Shown: positions 2,105 through 5,575 of the stretch, in pieces
Layout of the letters: every line of letters begins with the position of its first letter
Position numbering within the stretch: position 1 is the stretch's first letter
IMG/VR virus record: IMGVR_UViG_3300045988_000304
Location: 1-5,575 of that record
Direction: 5' to 3' (one strand)
Source of the DNA: a virus
DNA length: 5,575 bases
Notes under the pieces: model-generated
Databases searched by the model: none
The model's input: only the letters and a program-made list of their open reading frames with translations
Told to the model about the DNA's origin: nothing
Made by a program: the position numbers and the translations under genes

Positions 2105-3124
2105 ATGGGATGCAATAAACCGTTAATCCGGTTTTATGTACCTCATGACAGGGAGGCGAGTGGGCGAGTATACTCACTCGCCTCTTTTAACGAGATGCAT
2201 AAGACAAACCTTAGATACGAAGATCTAATGTACAGAAAAGATGTAATGTTGATACCATGCGGACAATGTACCGGATGTAGACTACGCAAACGAAAAGACT
2301 GGTCAACGCGAATGGAACTAGAAGCATACGGACACAGCAAAGAAACCATCTGGTTTATTACACTAACTTATGACGATGACCATGTACCGACACAGGACAC
2401 CGAAACAGGCGAAATCTATAAAGGCGGCATAAACATCTGGAAAGGCGTCTCAGAGCGTCCAAGAACAGCGCAAACTCTAAGCGTAGAGGATACCCAACTA
2501 TTTATAAAAAGGCTCAGAAAGGCCGTCAAAGAGCCTCTGAGATACTTTTTAGCGGGAGAGTACGGAGACAACACAGCGAGACCACACTATCACATGATAC
2601 TATATGGTTGGCATCCGGACGACTTAAAACCAATCCACAAACTGTCAAGACATGGTCATTATACAAGCGATAAGCTAGTAAAAATCTGGGGACAAGGCAC
2701 AGTTGACATCGCACAGGCAACACCAGAAACATATAATTATGTTGCAGGGTATGTGACCAAGAAACTATACGGCAACGACAAAAAGCGTTACCAGAAAATG
2801 GGTTTAATACCACCATTTTGCACCATGAGCCGCAAACCGGGACTCGGAGACAAGTGGTTCGAAGACAATCAAGAACGACTCTGGCAAAAAGGATACATAC
2901 AGCTTACCAACGGCAAGAGAGCAGCCATACCGGAATACTATTGGAGAAAACTGGAAGCTAAAAACCCAGAAAAAGCATGGAGAATCAAGAAATATCGACA
3001 GGGAAAAGCCATAGCGTCCCTAATCGAAAGAAACGCGGAAACCGACAAGCCATACGCAGAACAGTTAAAAGACAAAGAAGCATCCATGTCGAAGAAAATG
3101 AGCAAAGCCAAAGGCGTATTTTGA
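2105..3124 (+). CDS. VP4: replication initiation protein VP4 (HUH rolling-circle endonuclease, phiX174 A analogue)
   Basis: This 339-aa ORF starts 1 nt after the VP2 stop. It has the Cys cluster IPCGQCTGCRLRKRKDW, motif I FITLTYDD, the HUH motif PHYHMILYG (HYH at nt 2585-2593) and the catalytic Tyr motif YVAGYVTKK (nt 2738-2764). Confidence 0.93.
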   Translation: MGCNKPLIRFYVPHDREASGRVYSLASFNEMHKTNLRYEDLMYRKDVMLIPCGQCTGCRLRKRKDWSTRMELEAYGHSKETIWFITLTYDDDHVPTQDTETGEIYKGGINIWKGVSERPRTAQTLSVEDTQLFIKRLRKAVKEPLRYFLAGEYGDNTARPHYHMILYGWHPDDLKPIHKLSRHGHYTSDKLVKIWGQGTVDIAQATPETYNYVAGYVTKKLYGNDKKRYQKMGLIPPFCTMSRKPGLGDKWFEDNQERLWQKGYIQLTNGKRAAIPEYYWRKLEAKNPEKAWRIKKYRQGKAIASLIERNAETDKPYAEQLKDKEASMSKKMSKAKGVF

Positions 3125-3135
3125 CACTTTGGTGT

Positions 3136-3184
3136 CACTCAGCCAAGTAACTATCAAGTAAGCTACTTGGCTGAGTGTTTTATT
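3136..3184 (+). terminator. strong intrinsic terminator after VP4 (probable end of the genome-length transcription unit)
   Basis: CACTCAGCCAAGTAACT (3136-3152) pairs with AGCTACTTGGCTGAGTG (3161-3177). That gives a 17-bp stem with one mismatch and the loop ATCAAGTA, followed by TTTTATT (3178-3184). A small 6-bp hairpin, TGACAC/GTGTCA (3122-3137), overlaps the VP4 stop codon. Confidence 0.75.
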
Positions 3185-3193
3185 GATTTGTTA

Positions 3194-3237
3194 AATGCAC
3201 ACGCGCGCGCACGTAATCGCGCACGCGCACGTGCATT
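3194..3237. repeat. GC-rich imperfect palindrome made of alternating purine/pyrimidine tracts
   Basis: AATGCAC (3194-3200) pairs with GTGCATT (3231-3237), and inner pairs 3203-3207/3224-3228, 3209-3210/3221-3222 and 3212-3213/3218-3219 also form. In total 16 of 20 positions pair around the loop TAAT (3214-3217). Bases 3196-3215 and 3218-3236 are unbroken pyrimidine-purine alternations (TGCACACGCGCGCGCACGTA and CGCGCACGCGCACGTGCAT). Confidence 0.8.
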
Positions 3238-3259
3238 ATATTATTATTTTTATTATTAA
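3235..3259. other. 25-nt pure A/T tract (candidate DNA unwinding element)
   Basis: ATTATATTATTATTTTTATTATTAA contains no G or C from 3235 to 3259. It lies between the GC palindrome and the (TAG)5 repeat. Confidence 0.6.
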
Positions 3260-3266
3260 CTTGTTG

Positions 3267-3281
3267 TAGTAGTAGTAGTAG
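3267..3281 (+). repeat. (TAG)5 perfect trinucleotide repeat (DnaA-trio-like), followed by the G cluster GGAG
   Basis: TAGTAGTAGTAGTAG is read directly at 3267-3281. It is preceded by TTGTTG and followed by GGAG, then by the first TGTTGAA repeat. Confidence 0.9.
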
Positions 3282-3359
3282 GGAGTGTTGAAATGTTGAA
3301 TACTATGAATTTTTATCCTTGGAACGATATTTTTTGGCTAATTTTAATGTTGATACTTT

Positions 3360-3368
3360 TGTGGATAA
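3360..3368 (-). promoter_or_regulatory. DnaA box, perfect match to TTATCCACA
   Basis: The + strand reads TGTGGATAA, so its reverse complement is TTATCCACA, 9/9 to the strict consensus. Confidence 0.6.
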
Positions 3369-3394
3369 CTTGTTGAAATGTTGAAAGTATAGCA

Positions 3395-3403
3395 ATATGC
3401 ACA
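3395..3403 (+). promoter_or_regulatory. DnaA-box-like 9-mer in the opposite orientation, partly inside a hairpin stem
   Basis: ATATGCACA matches TTWTNCACA at 8/9. Bases 3398-3403 belong to the stem of the 3398-3417 hairpin. Confidence 0.35.
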
Positions 3404-3417
3404 AAAACCTTTGTGCA
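3398..3417 (+). other. 8-bp hairpin TGCACAAA / TTTGTGCA with loop AACC
   Basis: This perfect inverted repeat (3398-3405 and 3410-3417) sits between the second and third iteron clusters. Its stem carries the CACA half of two box-like 9-mers. Confidence 0.6.
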
Positions 3418-3420
3418 ACA
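3412..3420 (-). promoter_or_regulatory. DnaA-box-like 9-mer (one mismatch to the relaxed consensus), 3 nt from the 3424 box
   Basis: The + strand reads TGTGCAACA, against the reverse consensus TGTGNAWAA (8/9). Confidence 0.35.
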
Positions 3421-3423
3421 TTT

Positions 3424-3432
3424 TGTGGAAAA
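3424..3432 (-). promoter_or_regulatory. DnaA box, matches the relaxed consensus TTWTNCACA
   Basis: The + strand reads TGTGGAAAA, so its reverse complement is TTTTCCACA (9/9 relaxed, 8/9 strict). It has the same orientation as the 3360 box and the same position within the 33-nt repeat. Confidence 0.55.
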
Positions 3433-3502
3433 CCTGTTGAAAGTGTTGAAAGTGTTGAAAAAGCAAATAAAGGCCGACCGGCGACCGAGAGCGAGAAGCC
3501 AC

Positions 3503-3542
3503 GTCATGCTCTTCGTACGGCGCACCGCGCCTACCGCATGAC
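3503..3542 (+). other. GC-rich nested stem-loop just upstream of the promoter
   Basis: The outer stem pairs GTCATGC (3503-3509) with GCATGAC (3536-3542). The inner stem pairs GTA-C-GGCGC (3515-3523) with GCGCC-TAC (3527-3534) around the loop ACC. No T-run follows on either strand, so this is not a terminator. Confidence 0.6.
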
Positions 3543-3568
3543 CTCAAATAAAAAGTTTAAAAAACCTC

Positions 3569-3597
3569 TTGACAAATCGAAAAATCTGTGGTATAAT
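3569..3597 (+). promoter_or_regulatory. consensus sigma-70/sigma-A promoter with extended -10 and A/T-rich UP-like region
   Basis: TTGACA (3569-3574) and TATAAT (3592-3597) are separated by an exact 17-nt spacer. TG at 3589-3590 gives TGnTATAAT. The A-rich tract CAAATAAAAAGTTTAAAAAACC lies at 3545-3566. Confidence 0.75.
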
Positions 3598-3621
3598 GCA
3601 GATAGTAAAGGAGGTATAAAG

Positions 3622-3801
3622 ATGAATACCATCAATCATCTGAGCATCAAAGCCTTGAAGGAACTGGAAGAAGTAGGTTCCTACGATACCGCAAAATACA
3701 GATACATTATTAACCAGAGCAATGGAGGATGCTACCGCATCAATAAAGAGCTGCTAGGGACAACGGAAGCGCTCAACCCGGAAAATTGGGTGGAACAGTA
3801 A
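3622..3801 (+). CDS. hypothetical 59-aa protein, first gene downstream of the consensus promoter
   Basis: ATG at 3622 lies 7 nt after AAGGAGG (3608-3614), and TAA is at 3799-3801. The product is MNTINHLSIKALKELEEVGSYDTAKYRYIINQSNGGCYRINKELLGTTEALNPENWVEQ. It has no TM segment and no family I recognise. The track's longer form (3397-3801) would have to read through the promoter and the repeats. Confidence 0.6.
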   Translation: MNTINHLSIKALKELEEVGSYDTAKYRYIINQSNGGCYRINKELLGTTEALNPENWVEQ

Positions 3802-3831: not shown

Positions 3832-3873
3832 ACAAACCATTTATACAAAATAATTTTTTAGGAGGTGTTTGCT

Positions 3874-3978
3874 CTGTCTCTCAAGGAAATTAACGCGCTG
3901 TTTAACAACATCCGCAAAATCTTAGCCATGTTGGATAAGATTTACCACGCAGTAGAGGGGAACAATCCCAAGGAGTAA
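3874..3978 (+). CDS. candidate 34-aa ORF with a non-ATG start (CTG 3874, or GTG 3865 giving 37 aa)
   Basis: AGGAGG lies at 3860-3865. The frame from CTG 3874 reads LSLKEINALFNNIRKILAMLDKIYHAVEGNNPKE and stops at TAA 3976-3978. Its last codons, AAG GAG, form the SD for the next gene, whose GTG is at 3983. The only in-frame ATG (3928) has no SD. The start codon is uncertain. Confidence 0.35.
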   Translation: MSLKEINALFNNIRKILAMLDKIYHAVEGNNPKE

Positions 3979-3982
3979 CCAA

Positions 3983-4204
3983 GTGAAAACGTGGAATATA
4001 CGAGACCAGACCGATACGACGCTAGCGATGACACTCGCCAAAACTTACAAGGAGATCGAGGCGACATACAAGCACGTAAGAGCAGCCGCCACGATAGAAG
4101 ACGCAAAATTTTACATCGACATGGCATTTCGGAAAAAAGCTTTTGCGAATAACATCGAGATGGAACAAATCCGCAGGAGAATCAACAATGGGGAAGAGGA
4201 ATAA
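3983..4204 (+). CDS. hypothetical 73-aa protein
   Basis: GTG at 3983 lies 7 nt after AAGGAG (3970-3975). The predicted product MKTWNIRDQTDTTLAMTLAKTYKEIEATYKHVRAAATIEDAKFYIDMAFRKKAFANNIEMEQIRRRINNGEEE looks helical and charged, and matches no family I recognise. Its 3' end overlaps the next gene by 17 nt. Confidence 0.6.
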   Translation: MKTWNIRDQTDTTLAMTLAKTYKEIEATYKHVRAAATIEDAKFYIDMAFRKKAFANNIEMEQIRRRINNGEEE

Positions 4205-4307
4205 AGTCCGCAAGTCCAAAGACGCAAAAATTTACAACAAGACCGCACGAAAGACCAAAGCTATTAACTTGGGAAGCGGCGCAATGCGAGGAGGCATCAG
4301 ATTATGA
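4188..4307 (+). CDS. small basic DNA-binding protein (phiX174 J / gokushovirus VP8-like), 39 aa
   Basis: This ORF is below the track's size cut-off. ATG at 4188 lies 8 nt after AGGAG (4175-4179). The product is MGKRNKVRKSKDAKIYNKTARKTKAINLGSGAMRGGIRL, with 13 of 39 residues K or R. Its C-terminal RGGIRL resembles the RGGxR(L/F) ending I recall for small DNA-binding proteins of SpV4 and gokushoviruses. Its stop overlaps the next start (ATGA at 4304-4307). Confidence 0.7.
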   Translation: MGKRNKVRKSKDAKIYNKTARKTKAINLGSGAMRGGIRL

Positions 4308-4543
4308 TTAACGTATATGGTATCTATGACCAGTGTGCTATGTGCTATATTACCACCTTTAACGAGCGCGACGACAAAGTCGCCGAGCGCAATTTTAAGA
4401 TTGCGCTGATGGACGAGCACAACATCATGAGCAAAACGCCGAGCGACTACCGGCTTGTGAGACTCGCAAAGTTTGACGAGCGAAACGGCGATTTTGAGGA
4501 AGCAAAGGAGAATATCTACGATGGCATTTCGATCGGTAAGTAA
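4304..4543 (+). CDS. small conserved microvirus nonstructural protein (VP5-like), 79 aa
   Basis: ATG at 4304 lies 9 nt after GAGGAGG (4288-4294). The product begins MINVYGIYDQCAMCYITTFNERDDKVAERNFKIALMDEH...DYRLVRLAKFDERNGDF. This fits my memory of the ~80-aa protein found just upstream of VP3 in gokushoviruses. The VP5 label is from memory, not from a search. Confidence 0.65.
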   Translation: MINVYGIYDQCAMCYITTFNERDDKVAERNFKIALMDEHNIMSKTPSDYRLVRLAKFDERNGDFEEAKENIYDGISIGK

Positions 4544-5015
4544 TTTCCGCGAGACAGCGGAGGAATGGCAGACCGAAGCCGGCGAAACCGTAAGACGGAC
4601 ATACCTCTGGGAACGAAACGAAAAAGGCGAAAAGGTGCTAAAGCTCGACCAAATCATCGACCAGCAAGCAGAAATCGACAGCTACCTGGAAGAAACCAAG
4701 ATCGAAAACATCATCCGACGGGCAAGCATCGACCCAAACATTGCAGCGCGAATCGCGCCAGACCTTGGCGGAGGCATCCAAGACTTTACCGAGATGCCGC
4801 AGACGCTGGCAGAGCTCCAAAATATCATGATCCGAGCTGAACAGATTTGGGATGAAATACCAAAAGAAGCAAAGCTCAAATTTGACAACGACGTCGATAA
4901 ATTTATCTCGTCGTTTGGTACAGCAGAATGGGCTAAAAATCTGGGAATTTACACCGACGAAAAAACCACAACAGAAGCAACCAAAGCAACCGAAACAACG
5001 GAGGCAACTGAATGA
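4521..5015 (+). CDS. VP3: internal scaffolding protein VP3, 164 aa
   Basis: ATG at 4521 lies 10 nt after AAGGAG (4505-4510), which I prefer over the track's TTG at 4473. The block DFTEMPQTLAELQNIMIRAEQIWDEIPKEAKLKFDNDVDKFISSF matches the conserved core of gokushovirus VP3. It sits immediately upstream of VP1, and its stop overlaps the VP1 start. Confidence 0.8.
   Translation: MAFRSVSNFRETAEEWQTEAGETVRRTYLWERNEKGEKVLKLDQIIDQQAEIDSYLEETKIENIIRRASIDPNIAARIAPDLGGGIQDFTEMPQTLAELQNIMIRAEQIWDEIPKEAKLKFDNDVDKFISSFGTAEWAKNLGIYTDEKTTTEATKATETTEATE
4968..5012 (+). repeat. five imperfect 9-nt (3-codon) tandem repeats encoding the TTE-ATK-ATE-TTE-ATE tail of VP3
   Basis: The sequence reads ACAACAGAA GCAACCAAA GCAACCGAA ACAACGGAG GCAACTGAA. 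The fourth unit contains the GGAGG SD of VP1. Confidence 0.7.
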
Positions 5016-5575
5016 ACAGAAACAAAGACGCGGGATTTAATCAAGTACCAAGACTAAACATCACGCGAAGCCGCTTTAAGCGGCGGCAGGACGTCAAACT
5101 AACAATGAACGCAGGCCAGCTAATCCCGTTTTATGTCGATGAAGTGCTTCCGGGCGATACCTTTAGCATCGACCAAGCGGCGATCATCCGCATGACAACG
5201 CCCATCTTTCCAGTGATGGACAACTGCTACATGGACATCTATTATTTTTTCACTCCTAACCGGATTTTGTGGAAAAACTGGAAACGATTTATGGGCGAAA
5301 ACGACAACGGACCGTGGGCACAGAAGCAAGAATACACCATACCGCAAATCGCATGTAACTACGGGACGGCAGAAAATCCACTGCCAAAAGAAGGAAGCAT
5401 CATGGACTACATGGGCGTCCCAACAAAAGTAAACAAAAGTAAAGAAACAGCATTTTACATAAACGCGCTGCCGTTCCGAGCATATGCAATGATATGGCAA
5501 GAGTGGTTTAGAGACCAAAACATAGATAACCCAGCAATCAACTCAGTAGACGACGCAACAGTGGACTACAGAGAC
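5012..5575 (+). CDS. VP1: major capsid protein VP1 (phiX174 F-like), N-terminal part; runs off the window end and continues at base 1
   Basis: The ATG at 5012 overlaps the VP3 stop (ATGA), with GGAGG at 5000-5004 seven nt upstream. My own translation is open to the window end: MNRNKDAGFNQVPRLNITRSRFKRRQDVKLTMNAGQLIPFYVDEVLPGDTFSIDQAAIIRMTTPIFPVMDNCYMDIYYFFTPNRILWKNWKRFMGEN... This is the conserved N-terminus of Microviridae capsid proteins. It is missing from the ORF track because it has no in-window stop. The frame is continuous with 1-1183 across the 55-nt duplication (5520 is divisible by 3). Confidence 0.95.
   Translation, partial: MNRNKDAGFNQVPRLNITRSRFKRRQDVKLTMNAGQLIPFYVDEVLPGDTFSIDQAAIIRMTTPIFPVMDNCYMDIYYFFTPNRILWKNWKRFMGENDNGPWAQKQEYTIPQIACNYGTAENPLPKEGSIMDYMGVPTKVNKSKETAFYINALPFRAYAMIWQEWFRDQNIDNPAINSVDDATVDYRD
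5521..5575. repeat. 55-nt exact terminal redundancy with bases 1-55 (circular-genome assembly overlap)
   Basis: CATAGATAACCCAGCAATCAACTCAGTAGACGACGCAACAGTGGACTACAGAGAC occurs at both ends of the window and lies inside the VP1 reading frame. Confidence 0.97.

Follow-up and report, generated by a model that had tools for sequence, protein, structure and literature searches.

Why would a phage with a small single-stranded DNA (ssDNA) genome carry a stretch laid out like the unwinding region of a bacterial chromosome origin? The question is raised by positions 3235-3461 of the IMG/VR record IMGVR_UViG_3300045988_000304, a complete circular gokushovirus genome of 5575 bases (hereafter, the window, meaning the whole stretch analysed) whose genes all lie on the + strand. 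Microviruses are textbook rolling-circle replicators, which use their own Rep protein plus host elongation factors. An earlier note on this DNA had likened an AT tract, a run of TAG triplets, a G cluster and adjoining repeats to the DnaA-trio unwinding layout of bacterial origins, and had proposed that the phage may recruit the host initiator DnaA. We find that the layout matches the module of Bacillus subtilis and, nearly base for base, the dnaA-dnaN intergenic regions of Ruminococcus/Oscillospiraceae bacteria. From these sequence comparisons, we consider it likely that 3235-3461 is a compact module of the bacterial-origin type, which would support DnaA-dependent, origin-like replication of the replicative form beside the rolling-circle replication driven by the phage protein VP4.

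Layout of the module and the basal unwinding system

The module begins on the + strand with 25 consecutive A/T (3235-3259), at the position of a duplex unwinding element beyond the trios. This tract is followed by CTTGTTG (3260-3266), of which TTGTTG (3261-3266) is in phase with the subsequent TAG triplets and may represent two further trio-like units. Next is (TAG)5, TAGTAGTAGTAGTAG (3267-3281; period 3 with 100% matches in Tandem Repeats Finder), equal to five DnaA-trios (3'-GAT-5'). A 4-nt G-rich spacer, GGAG (3282-3285), separates the trios from an 8-nt proximal box, TGTTGAAA (3286-3293), which abuts a 9-nt distal box, TGTTGAATA (3294-3302; TGTTGAAT(A)), in the same orientation. Relatives have NGTGGAAAA or TGTTGATAA at these tandem-box sites (3286-3302). 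All of these elements, and the perfect box 79 nt past the last TAG, are located where the earlier note had placed them.

Two more clusters of boxes follow on the + strand. The second (3348-3387) consists of TGTTGATAC, TGTGGATAA, TGTTGAAAT and TGTTGAAAG, its TGTGGATAA (3360-3368; TTATCCACA on the - strand) being the perfect E. coli-type DnaA box just mentioned. The third (3424-3461) consists of TGTGGAAAA, CC, and then TGTTGAAAG, TGTTGAAAG and TGTTGAAAA at 9-nt spacing; its TGTGGAAAA (3424-3432) is a second consensus-type box that had not been listed before. In total, ten co-oriented TGTKGAWA boxes lie within about 180 nt, in three related modules (family D1). The six exact copies of TGTTGAAA in the genome are confined to 3286-3460, and each is on the + strand. 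When one mismatch is allowed, TGTTGAAA has 14 matches compared with 6.1 expected, a number reached in 0 of 200 shuffles. The box array is therefore far beyond chance.

The basal unwinding system (BUS) of bacterial origins reportedly comprises a pair of DnaA boxes, a GC-rich spacer, DnaA-trios and an AT-rich region (Richardson 2016; Pelliciari 2021; Pelliciari 2023). The trio strand of the B. subtilis BUS reads, 5' to 3', AT-rich sequence, TAGTAGAAGTAATAGTAG, GGCC, TGTGGATT and TGTGGATAA (Pelliciari 2021, supplementary table; PMC8287927), and the layout is the same in Listeria and Staphylococcus (Pelliciari 2021; PMC8287927). The window shares with B. subtilis the order and orientation of the elements, the 4-nt spacer, the direct contact of an 8-nt proximal with a 9-nt distal box, and a separation of 12 bp between the distal box and the trios. 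As in the published BUS, the boxes point towards the trios, so the order and orientation on which the earlier comparison depended do agree with bacterial origins.

Published rules for recognizing a BUS specify a box with no more than two mismatches to the species motif, located 0-16 bp (usually 12-13 bp) from at least three NAN trios (PMC8287927). When the host-type motif TGTTGAAAA is used, the proximal TGTTGAAAT and the distal TGTTGAATA have one mismatch each and lie 4 and 12 bp from the trios. These two boxes form a co-oriented pair, as do those of B. subtilis, Listeria, Staphylococcus and the five bacterial origins described below. The published trios have a central adenine, with 3'-GAT-5' the preferred sequence; the window has five perfect TAG trios, and in relatives a single case departs from a central A or C. 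The gap between trios and boxes is short and GC-rich, and an AT-rich region lies beyond the trios, as it does at the equivalent position in the five bacterial origins and in B. subtilis. The module is not at a chromosomal oriC, lying instead between VP4 and small phage genes; its location in a microvirus genome therefore indicates a phage-borne version rather than a chromosomal origin.

Constraint and orientation among related phages

Relatives were gathered independently of the TAG tract, through VP4 (80 IMG/VR loci) and through the third box cluster (at least 119 loci). The third-cluster pattern, AAACCTGTTGAAANTGTTGAAA, was found in at least 119 IMG/VR stretches, nearly all of them contigs of microvirus size (4.0-6.3 kb); among the matches listed, third-cluster loci of 4.5, 4.8 and 11.3 kb have no homology to VP1, VP2 or VP4 of the window. 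The region is common to 52 GenBank phage records and more than 180 IMG/VR genomes. In several genomes, 3346-3461 (about 87% identity) is the sole part that matches by megablast, and the third cluster (3424-3461) is the most conserved part of the module. One microvirus contig, IMGVR_UViG_3300045988_007630 (L320 and L068; 10,917 nt), is about twice the length of a unit genome and may be a dimer or an assembly concatemer.

The trio tract is under conspicuous constraint. Among the matches listed, 181 of 189 related genomes have TTGTTG with a triplet tract after it, TTGTTG itself being nearly invariant. The tract is 15 nt long (five triplets) in almost all of the 181 and 18 nt long (six triplets) in one sub-lineage. 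Every triplet but the second (the first and the third to fifth) is TAG in 92-99% of 132 unique contexts, the figure for the three nearest the box being 92-98%, and the second triplet holds most of the variation. Compared with TAG, the first base changes freely (T>A 12, T>C 18, T>G 22), the middle base changes almost exclusively to C (A>C 67, A>T 1, A>G 0), and the last base changes only to A (G>A 9), these counts being of sequences rather than of independent events and uncorrected for shared ancestry. A>C occurs in at least six different triplet/variant states, compared with one for A>T and none for the transition A>G.

This pattern can be compared with experiments on the trios of bacteria. 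DnaA captures the 3'-GA-5' dinucleotide of each trio and does not capture the 5' T; C is an acceptable substitute for the central A in vitro as well as in vivo, and G and T are not; and single trios may carry 3'-AA-5' (Pelliciari 2023; PMC10721633). Trio variation in the phages follows this amine-group rule, with a central A or C. The more than 130 natural variants collected here thus provide support for the published rule that is independent of the experiments.

Spacing is conserved as well. Of 131 unique contexts, 100 have a distance of 5 nt between the tract and the GTKGA core of the first box, and the letters of the 4-nt spacer vary (GGAG, GCAA, AGGT, GGCC and others). The phase and number of the TAG triplets, about which the earlier note had asked, are thus nearly constant in relatives, and one length of the spacer predominates. 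The fixed spacing together with the patterned substitutions indicates a constrained geometry rather than slippage. A microsatellite produced by replication slippage, which had been raised as a caveat, can be dismissed given the near-constant tract length and the strongly non-random point substitutions.

At homologous sites in relatives, including one in the second cluster, TGTGGAWAA and TGTTGAAAA replace each other, an interchange which implies that one protein reads both. In one IMG/VR microvirus (L282), the unit of trios plus proximal box is duplicated in tandem. Among cultured gokushoviruses outside this group, Chlamydia phage Chp2 (AJ270057; L325:2820-2840) has only two copies of TGTGCAAAA, 12 nt apart and directly after VP3, and Bdellovibrio phage phiMH2K has no box cluster. 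Both copies of TGTGCAAAA in Chp2 fit the relaxed DnaA-box consensus TGTGNAWAA perfectly, which hints that DnaA boxes are perhaps present in other gokushovirus non-coding regions. Since the module is missing from both Chp2 and phiMH2K, it is not a general gokushovirus feature.

The module is found in both orientations. Among the matches listed, 44 of 118 genomes (37%) carry it inverted with respect to the genes. Three configurations were seen among the third-cluster matches listed: in 72 genomes, the module has the orientation of the genes and lies downstream of VP4, with VP4 43-97% identical to that of the window; in 37 genomes, it is inverted and lies between VP2 and VP4 (VP4 33-42% identical); and in 3 genomes, it is inverted and downstream of VP4 (VP4 56-57% identical). 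The annotated GenBank genomes KT264784 and KX513876 confirm the inverted module between VP2 and VP4. Stretches resembling GCGCGCACGCGC are located at the breakpoints of the inverted variants L069, L082 and L085, which suggests that G+C-rich stretches of this type mediate inversion of the module.

Microviruses package the coding-sense strand. With the module inverted in more than one-third of the phages, the packaged strand in those phages carries CTA, not TAG. In addition, 3230-3470 folded as ssDNA has a z score of +0.74, with 151 of 200 shuffles folding as well. In contrast to this region, the terminator-like hairpin and GC palindrome just upstream have a very strong single-strand fold (z = -6.2). 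The presence of the module in both orientations and at two positions, along with the lack of ssDNA structure, argues for a function on the double-stranded replicative form. The suggestion that the TAG repeats act by being exposed on the incoming single strand is therefore not borne out. Two related candidates were also set aside. For hairpins presenting DnaA boxes on ssDNA, the region has no excess of structure, and the one 8-nt stem is broken in relatives without compensation. The hexamer AACTTG (3258-3263) was considered as a nick site for Rep like that of phiX174, but 37% of genomes have it on the strand that is not packaged.

The boxes and the origins of Ruminococcus/Oscillospiraceae

Scanning bacterial genomes, one for each species, for three TGTTGAAA units in a row returned at least 120 loci, many of them unrelated simple repeats. 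Among the matches listed, several Ruminococcus sp./Oscillospiraceae loci carry mixed clusters of TGTTGAAA and TGTGGAAA in both orientations, and in L127, L144, L145, L152 and L181 the box cluster fills the dnaA-dnaN intergenic region. Pfam confirmed DnaA and DnaN in L127 and L145, DnaA in L152, and DnaN in L144; dnaA and dnaN of L181 were named from the position and N-terminal sequence of the open reading frames (ORFs).

At the dnaN end of all five origins, the trio strand reads AT-rich sequence, trios, GGGG or GGTC, TGTTGAAA, C or A, and a second box, which is TGTTGAAAA, TGTGGAAAA or GTTGAAAAA. The trio tract is (TAG)5 in L127 and L145, (TAG)4 in L144 and L181, and (TTG)5 in L152. Over 27 nt, the phage stretch TAGTAGTAGTAGTAGGGAGTGTTGAAA matches L127 and L145 at 96% identity. 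ACTATG follows the module in L127 and L144 only, and the phage has ACTATG there too. The likeness extends to the rest of the array: the bacterial origins contain TTTCAACA-N-TTTCAACA-N-TTTCAACA beside TTTTCCACA, and the second and third clusters of the phage repeat this arrangement, with two or three TTTCAACA beside TTTTCCACA.

In the origin regions of L127, L144, L145 and L152, TGTTGAAA occurs 19-29 times and TGTGGAAA 4-8 times, and TGTGGATAA never occurs. TGTTGAAA is thus the dominant origin box of the Ruminococcus/Oscillospiraceae clade. The repeats next to the trios, which had been scored as matching the DnaA box at only 6-7 of 9 positions, are in fact the main origin box of the probable host clade.

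DnaA itself differs in this clade. The DnaA proteins of L127, L145, L152 and L195 have GGRDHSTIVY in the recognition helix, compared with the usual GGRDHTTV(I/L)HA; B. subtilis and Aquifex DnaA have (G/K)RDHTTVIHA at the same site. We take the changed residues to be T435 and H439 in E. coli numbering. The recognition helix of DnaA reads the TnCACA half of the box (PMC5742627), and the altered helix fits the clade-specific box TTTCAACA. The pairing of TTTCAACA boxes with an altered recognition helix suggests that Ruminococcus/Oscillospiraceae bacteria may have undergone a change in DnaA-box specificity, perhaps one not described before.

Taken with these origins, the phage repeats appear to be DnaA boxes tuned to this clade, and a Ruminococcus/Oscillospiraceae bacterium is the probable host of the phage. 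Most phage genes are preceded by strong Shine-Dalgarno sequences; this and a consensus sigma-70 promoter agree with a Firmicutes host. Among the matches listed, the genome scan yielded no integrated (prophage) copy, and the sole microvirus contig among these bacterial loci was the free contig L172. If correct, the assignment offers a sequence-based host prediction for a large clade of uncultured gut gokushoviruses, in which the captured module would serve as a host label.

The scan also returned similar clusters away from origins. An Acutalibacteraceae contig (JAZNWP010000115; L160:about 3140-3180) carries TAGTAGTTGTTGTTG, GGGC, TGTGGAAA and AGTTGAAA plus a box cluster, away from dnaA, and may be another mobile element with a host-type unwinding module. 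A 5034-nt contig of a Ruminococcus genome (L149) has three tandem TGTTGAAA units and may be a plasmid using host boxes; two of its ORFs resemble, by their N-termini only, a plasmid replication initiator and a ribbon-helix-helix protein. In two Ruminococcus loci (L115 and L140), TGTTGAAA and TGTGGAAA boxes are densely clustered in both orientations, with no dnaA or dnaN among the neighbouring ORFs; these may be datA/DARS-like or regulatory DnaA-box clusters.

Genome context, competing readings and known systems

Genes of the window were assigned from PHROGs and are all on the + strand: the major capsid protein (VP1; 5012-5575 plus 1-1183, split by the ends of the window), DNA pilot protein VP2 (1225-2103), rolling-circle replication protein VP4 (2105-3124), a VP5-like DNA-binding protein (4304-4543) and a scaffold-like protein (about 4521-5015). 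The nearest GenBank records are gut gokushoviruses from the faeces of human, monkey and pig. The non-coding region that holds the module is about 500 nt long (3125-3621) and is bounded by the VP4 stop and by a small ORF with its start at 3622, preceded by AAGGAGG. This ORF (3622-3801; 59 amino acids) has a strong ribosome-binding site and lies behind a sigma-70 promoter (3569-3597) with 12/12 matches (TTGACA, a 17-nt spacer with TG, and TATAAT), about 110 nt downstream of the box array. No PHROGs match was found for the small ORFs 3622-3801, 3865-3978 and 3983-4204. ORFs that overlap the box array (3313-3525 and 3344-3547 on the - strand, 3397-3801 on the + strand) were judged spurious because they run through the repeats and because the real downstream gene starts at 3622 with its strong ribosome-binding site.

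Directly after the VP4 stop is a terminator-like hairpin with a 17-bp stem followed by a T-rich run (3136-3177). Its two arms co-vary in relatives, with CTCAGCC/GGCTGAG becoming CTCGGCC/GGCCGAG or CTCCGCC/GGCGGAG, and these compensatory changes indicate that the structure is under selection. Between the hairpin and the trios, an alternating purine-pyrimidine, G+C-rich palindrome of CA/CG repeats, AATGCACACGCGCGCGCACG / CGCGCACGCGCACGTGCATT (3194-3237; inverted repeat I2), flanks the AT-rich tract. The character of this palindrome is kept in relatives with the same orientation, and it is absent beside the module in the inverted group. Beside the unwinding element, this sequence may adopt a cruciform or Z-DNA structure; alternatively, it may fold into a hairpin when the genome is single-stranded. 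An Rfam search of known RNA families gave only a sub-threshold miRNA match on it (24 bits against a gathering threshold of 90; E = 0.79). Another palindrome, TGCACAAA-N4-TTTGTGCA (3398-3417; inverted repeat I11), lies between the second and third box clusters, and its conservation across all groups is limited to the right half, TTTGTGCAAC. Tandem repeats elsewhere in the window are GGGCAAAACCCC (2.4 copies; 1189-1217) between VP1 and VP2 and a 10-nt repeat, AACAAAAGTA (5422-5447), inside the capsid gene; the TEATKATETTEATE tail of the scaffold-like protein is likewise encoded by a 9-nt repeat (4975-4999).

If the module works as its layout suggests, host DnaA-ATP would bind the boxes on the double-stranded replicative form through domain IV and would oligomerise from the proximal box pair onto the TAG strand, capturing AG dinucleotides. 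The DnaA filament would then open the AT-rich tract, and the opened duplex would permit loading of host helicase and primase. In this way, the replicative form would gain an origin-like replication mode added to VP4 rolling-circle replication, presumably to the benefit of the phage, and phage replication would become coupled to the initiation state of the host. Among the uses of host DnaA considered in the earlier note, replication of the double-stranded replicative form fits best and complementary-strand priming on ssDNA fits worst. A bolder extension holds that gut gokushoviruses are facultative origin-type minichromosomes, which DnaA would replicate in step with the host cycle in a plasmid-like carrier state that could explain the long-term persistence of gut microviruses; we offer this tentatively and regard it as doubtful.

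Several observations weigh against origin function or against the proposed host. The box-distal triplet and TTGTTG are as invariant as the proximal trios, which the B. subtilis model does not predict. Two IMG/VR microviruses (L283 and L309) are without the unit of trios plus proximal box and keep the other two box clusters, so that the unwinding part may be dispensable or these genomes defective. Compared with the E. coli consensus TTATCCACA, the trio-adjacent boxes of the window have three mismatches each and pass the BUS rules only with the host-type motif, and relatives with TGTTGATAA or TGTGGAAAA at the tandem-box sites pass even with TTATCCACA. The (TTG)5 tract of L152 breaks the A/C rule at its middle base, and the trio substitution counts are, as noted, uncorrected for shared ancestry. 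The Ruminococcus/Oscillospiraceae host assignment is indirect, and the related microvirus contig L172 (5.8 kb, free) was binned with a Prevotella genome; we regard this binning as weak evidence since it is unreliable for a 5.8-kb contig. Finally, we know of no need for DnaA in a rolling-circle phage.

Could the array bind DnaA and never fire as an origin? It would then be a sink that perturbs host initiation, like datA, or a regulator of phage promoters, and the trios and AT tract would be the inherited baggage of a captured origin fragment. Ten co-oriented boxes in 180 nt and a perfect sigma-70 promoter about 110 nt downstream suit such a role, as do the retention of clusters B and C without the trio part in L283 and L309 and the existence of such clusters away from the origin in Ruminococcus (L115 and L140). 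Yet a sink or operator needs no trios, exact 4-nt spacer or AT tract, and these are the most specifically constrained features; the position of the module relative to promoters also differs among the three genome configurations. We consider this reading unlikely. Action on the single strand, in which exposed TAG repeats nucleate a DnaA-ATP filament or a box hairpin acts as in the ABC primosome, with helicase and primase then loaded for complementary-strand synthesis, has a precedent in the DnaA-box hairpin that drives complementary-strand synthesis of an M13 derivative in vitro (PMC6127211). The TAG strand of the window is, moreover, the coding strand, which is the one packaged. This version is nonetheless very unlikely given that inverted modules place CTA on the packaged strand, that the boxes are all direct repeats in an unstructured region, and that the sole candidate stem, AAATGTTG/CAACATTT, is not kept in relatives. 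With no ssDNA structure, the boxes would not be double-stranded, as DnaA domain IV requires, and the stable packaged-strand hairpin presenting a box that characterizes the A site of the ABC primosome was not found.

We give least credence to the repeats being iterons for a phage-encoded or other protein, with the TAG run an incidental microsatellite and the likeness to DnaA boxes a coincidence. Iterons and the sites of ribbon-helix-helix proteins are typically short, contiguous 8-9-nt direct repeats. The phage repeats have this form, and several small phage ORFs without an assigned function lie downstream. However, the same boxes, trio tract and spacer fill bacterial dnaA-dnaN origins, and the constant length of the tract speaks against evolution by slippage. 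PHROGs identified no theta-type initiator in the genome, naming only Rep VP4, structural proteins and one small DNA-binding protein, so that the self-encoded initiator of an iteron origin was not found. Nothing similar was found in 72,556 plasmids (PLSDB; blastn), which also led us to reject a plasmid-derived origin. Spo0A boxes (TGNCGAA) were rejected in turn: the repeats carry T where the critical C of that motif should be, and it is the boxes of the host origins that they match. Origin-like replication of the replicative form by host DnaA therefore remains the reading that we favor.

Literature searches combining gokushovirus, Microviridae or microvirus with DnaA or DnaA box, or concerning oriC-like phage elements, returned no relevant description, and none of the papers that mention both DnaA-trios and phage describes such an element. 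This agrees with the earlier note, whose author knew of no such module in microviruses. The type of element is known; as far as we could determine, its occurrence as a mobile, conserved cassette in a clade of ssDNA phages appears to be new. If the module works, a major group of gut phages would possess a second, host-initiator-driven mode of replication, linked to the DnaA-ATP cycle of the host. It would also offer a mechanism for plasmid-like persistence without integrase or integration.

Of the known systems, the chromosomal BUS is similar in its 3'-GAT-5' trios, its distal AT-rich tract and its tolerated substitutions (A or C in the middle, a free 5' base). It is typically located beside dnaA, whereas the phage module lies beside the rolling-circle Rep gene of a 5.6-kb ssDNA phage. 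Unlike the BUS, the phage module occurs at two positions and in two orientations, has TTTCAACA-type boxes and has an invariant TTGTTG before the trios. In phiX174, gene A nicks at CAACTTG/ATATTAATAAC, and a PriA assembly site lies in the F-G intergenic region. Origins of this type share with the window a cis-acting replication element in a microvirus non-coding region, and the AACTTG hexamer is present here at 3258-3263; phiX174, however, uses PriA rather than DnaA and has no box array. The A site of the ABC primosome (Masai and Arai; PMC6127211) shares with our proposal the recruitment of DnaA to the genome of an ssDNA phage, where it loads helicase and primase. The A site is a hairpin with one double-stranded box on ssDNA, whereas the phage region is unstructured and occurs in either orientation.

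The origins of P1 (oriR), pSC101, F and RK2 combine a few DnaA boxes with iterons for an initiator of their own. Along with oriC minichromosomes and other phage origins, they share with the module the principle of an extrachromosomal replicon with host DnaA boxes and an AT-rich opening region. Unlike the origins of P1, pSC101, F and RK2, the phage module has no second initiator gene, every one of its repeats is of the host type, and its trio module is complete. In these respects, it is closer to a cloned oriC than to a plasmid origin.

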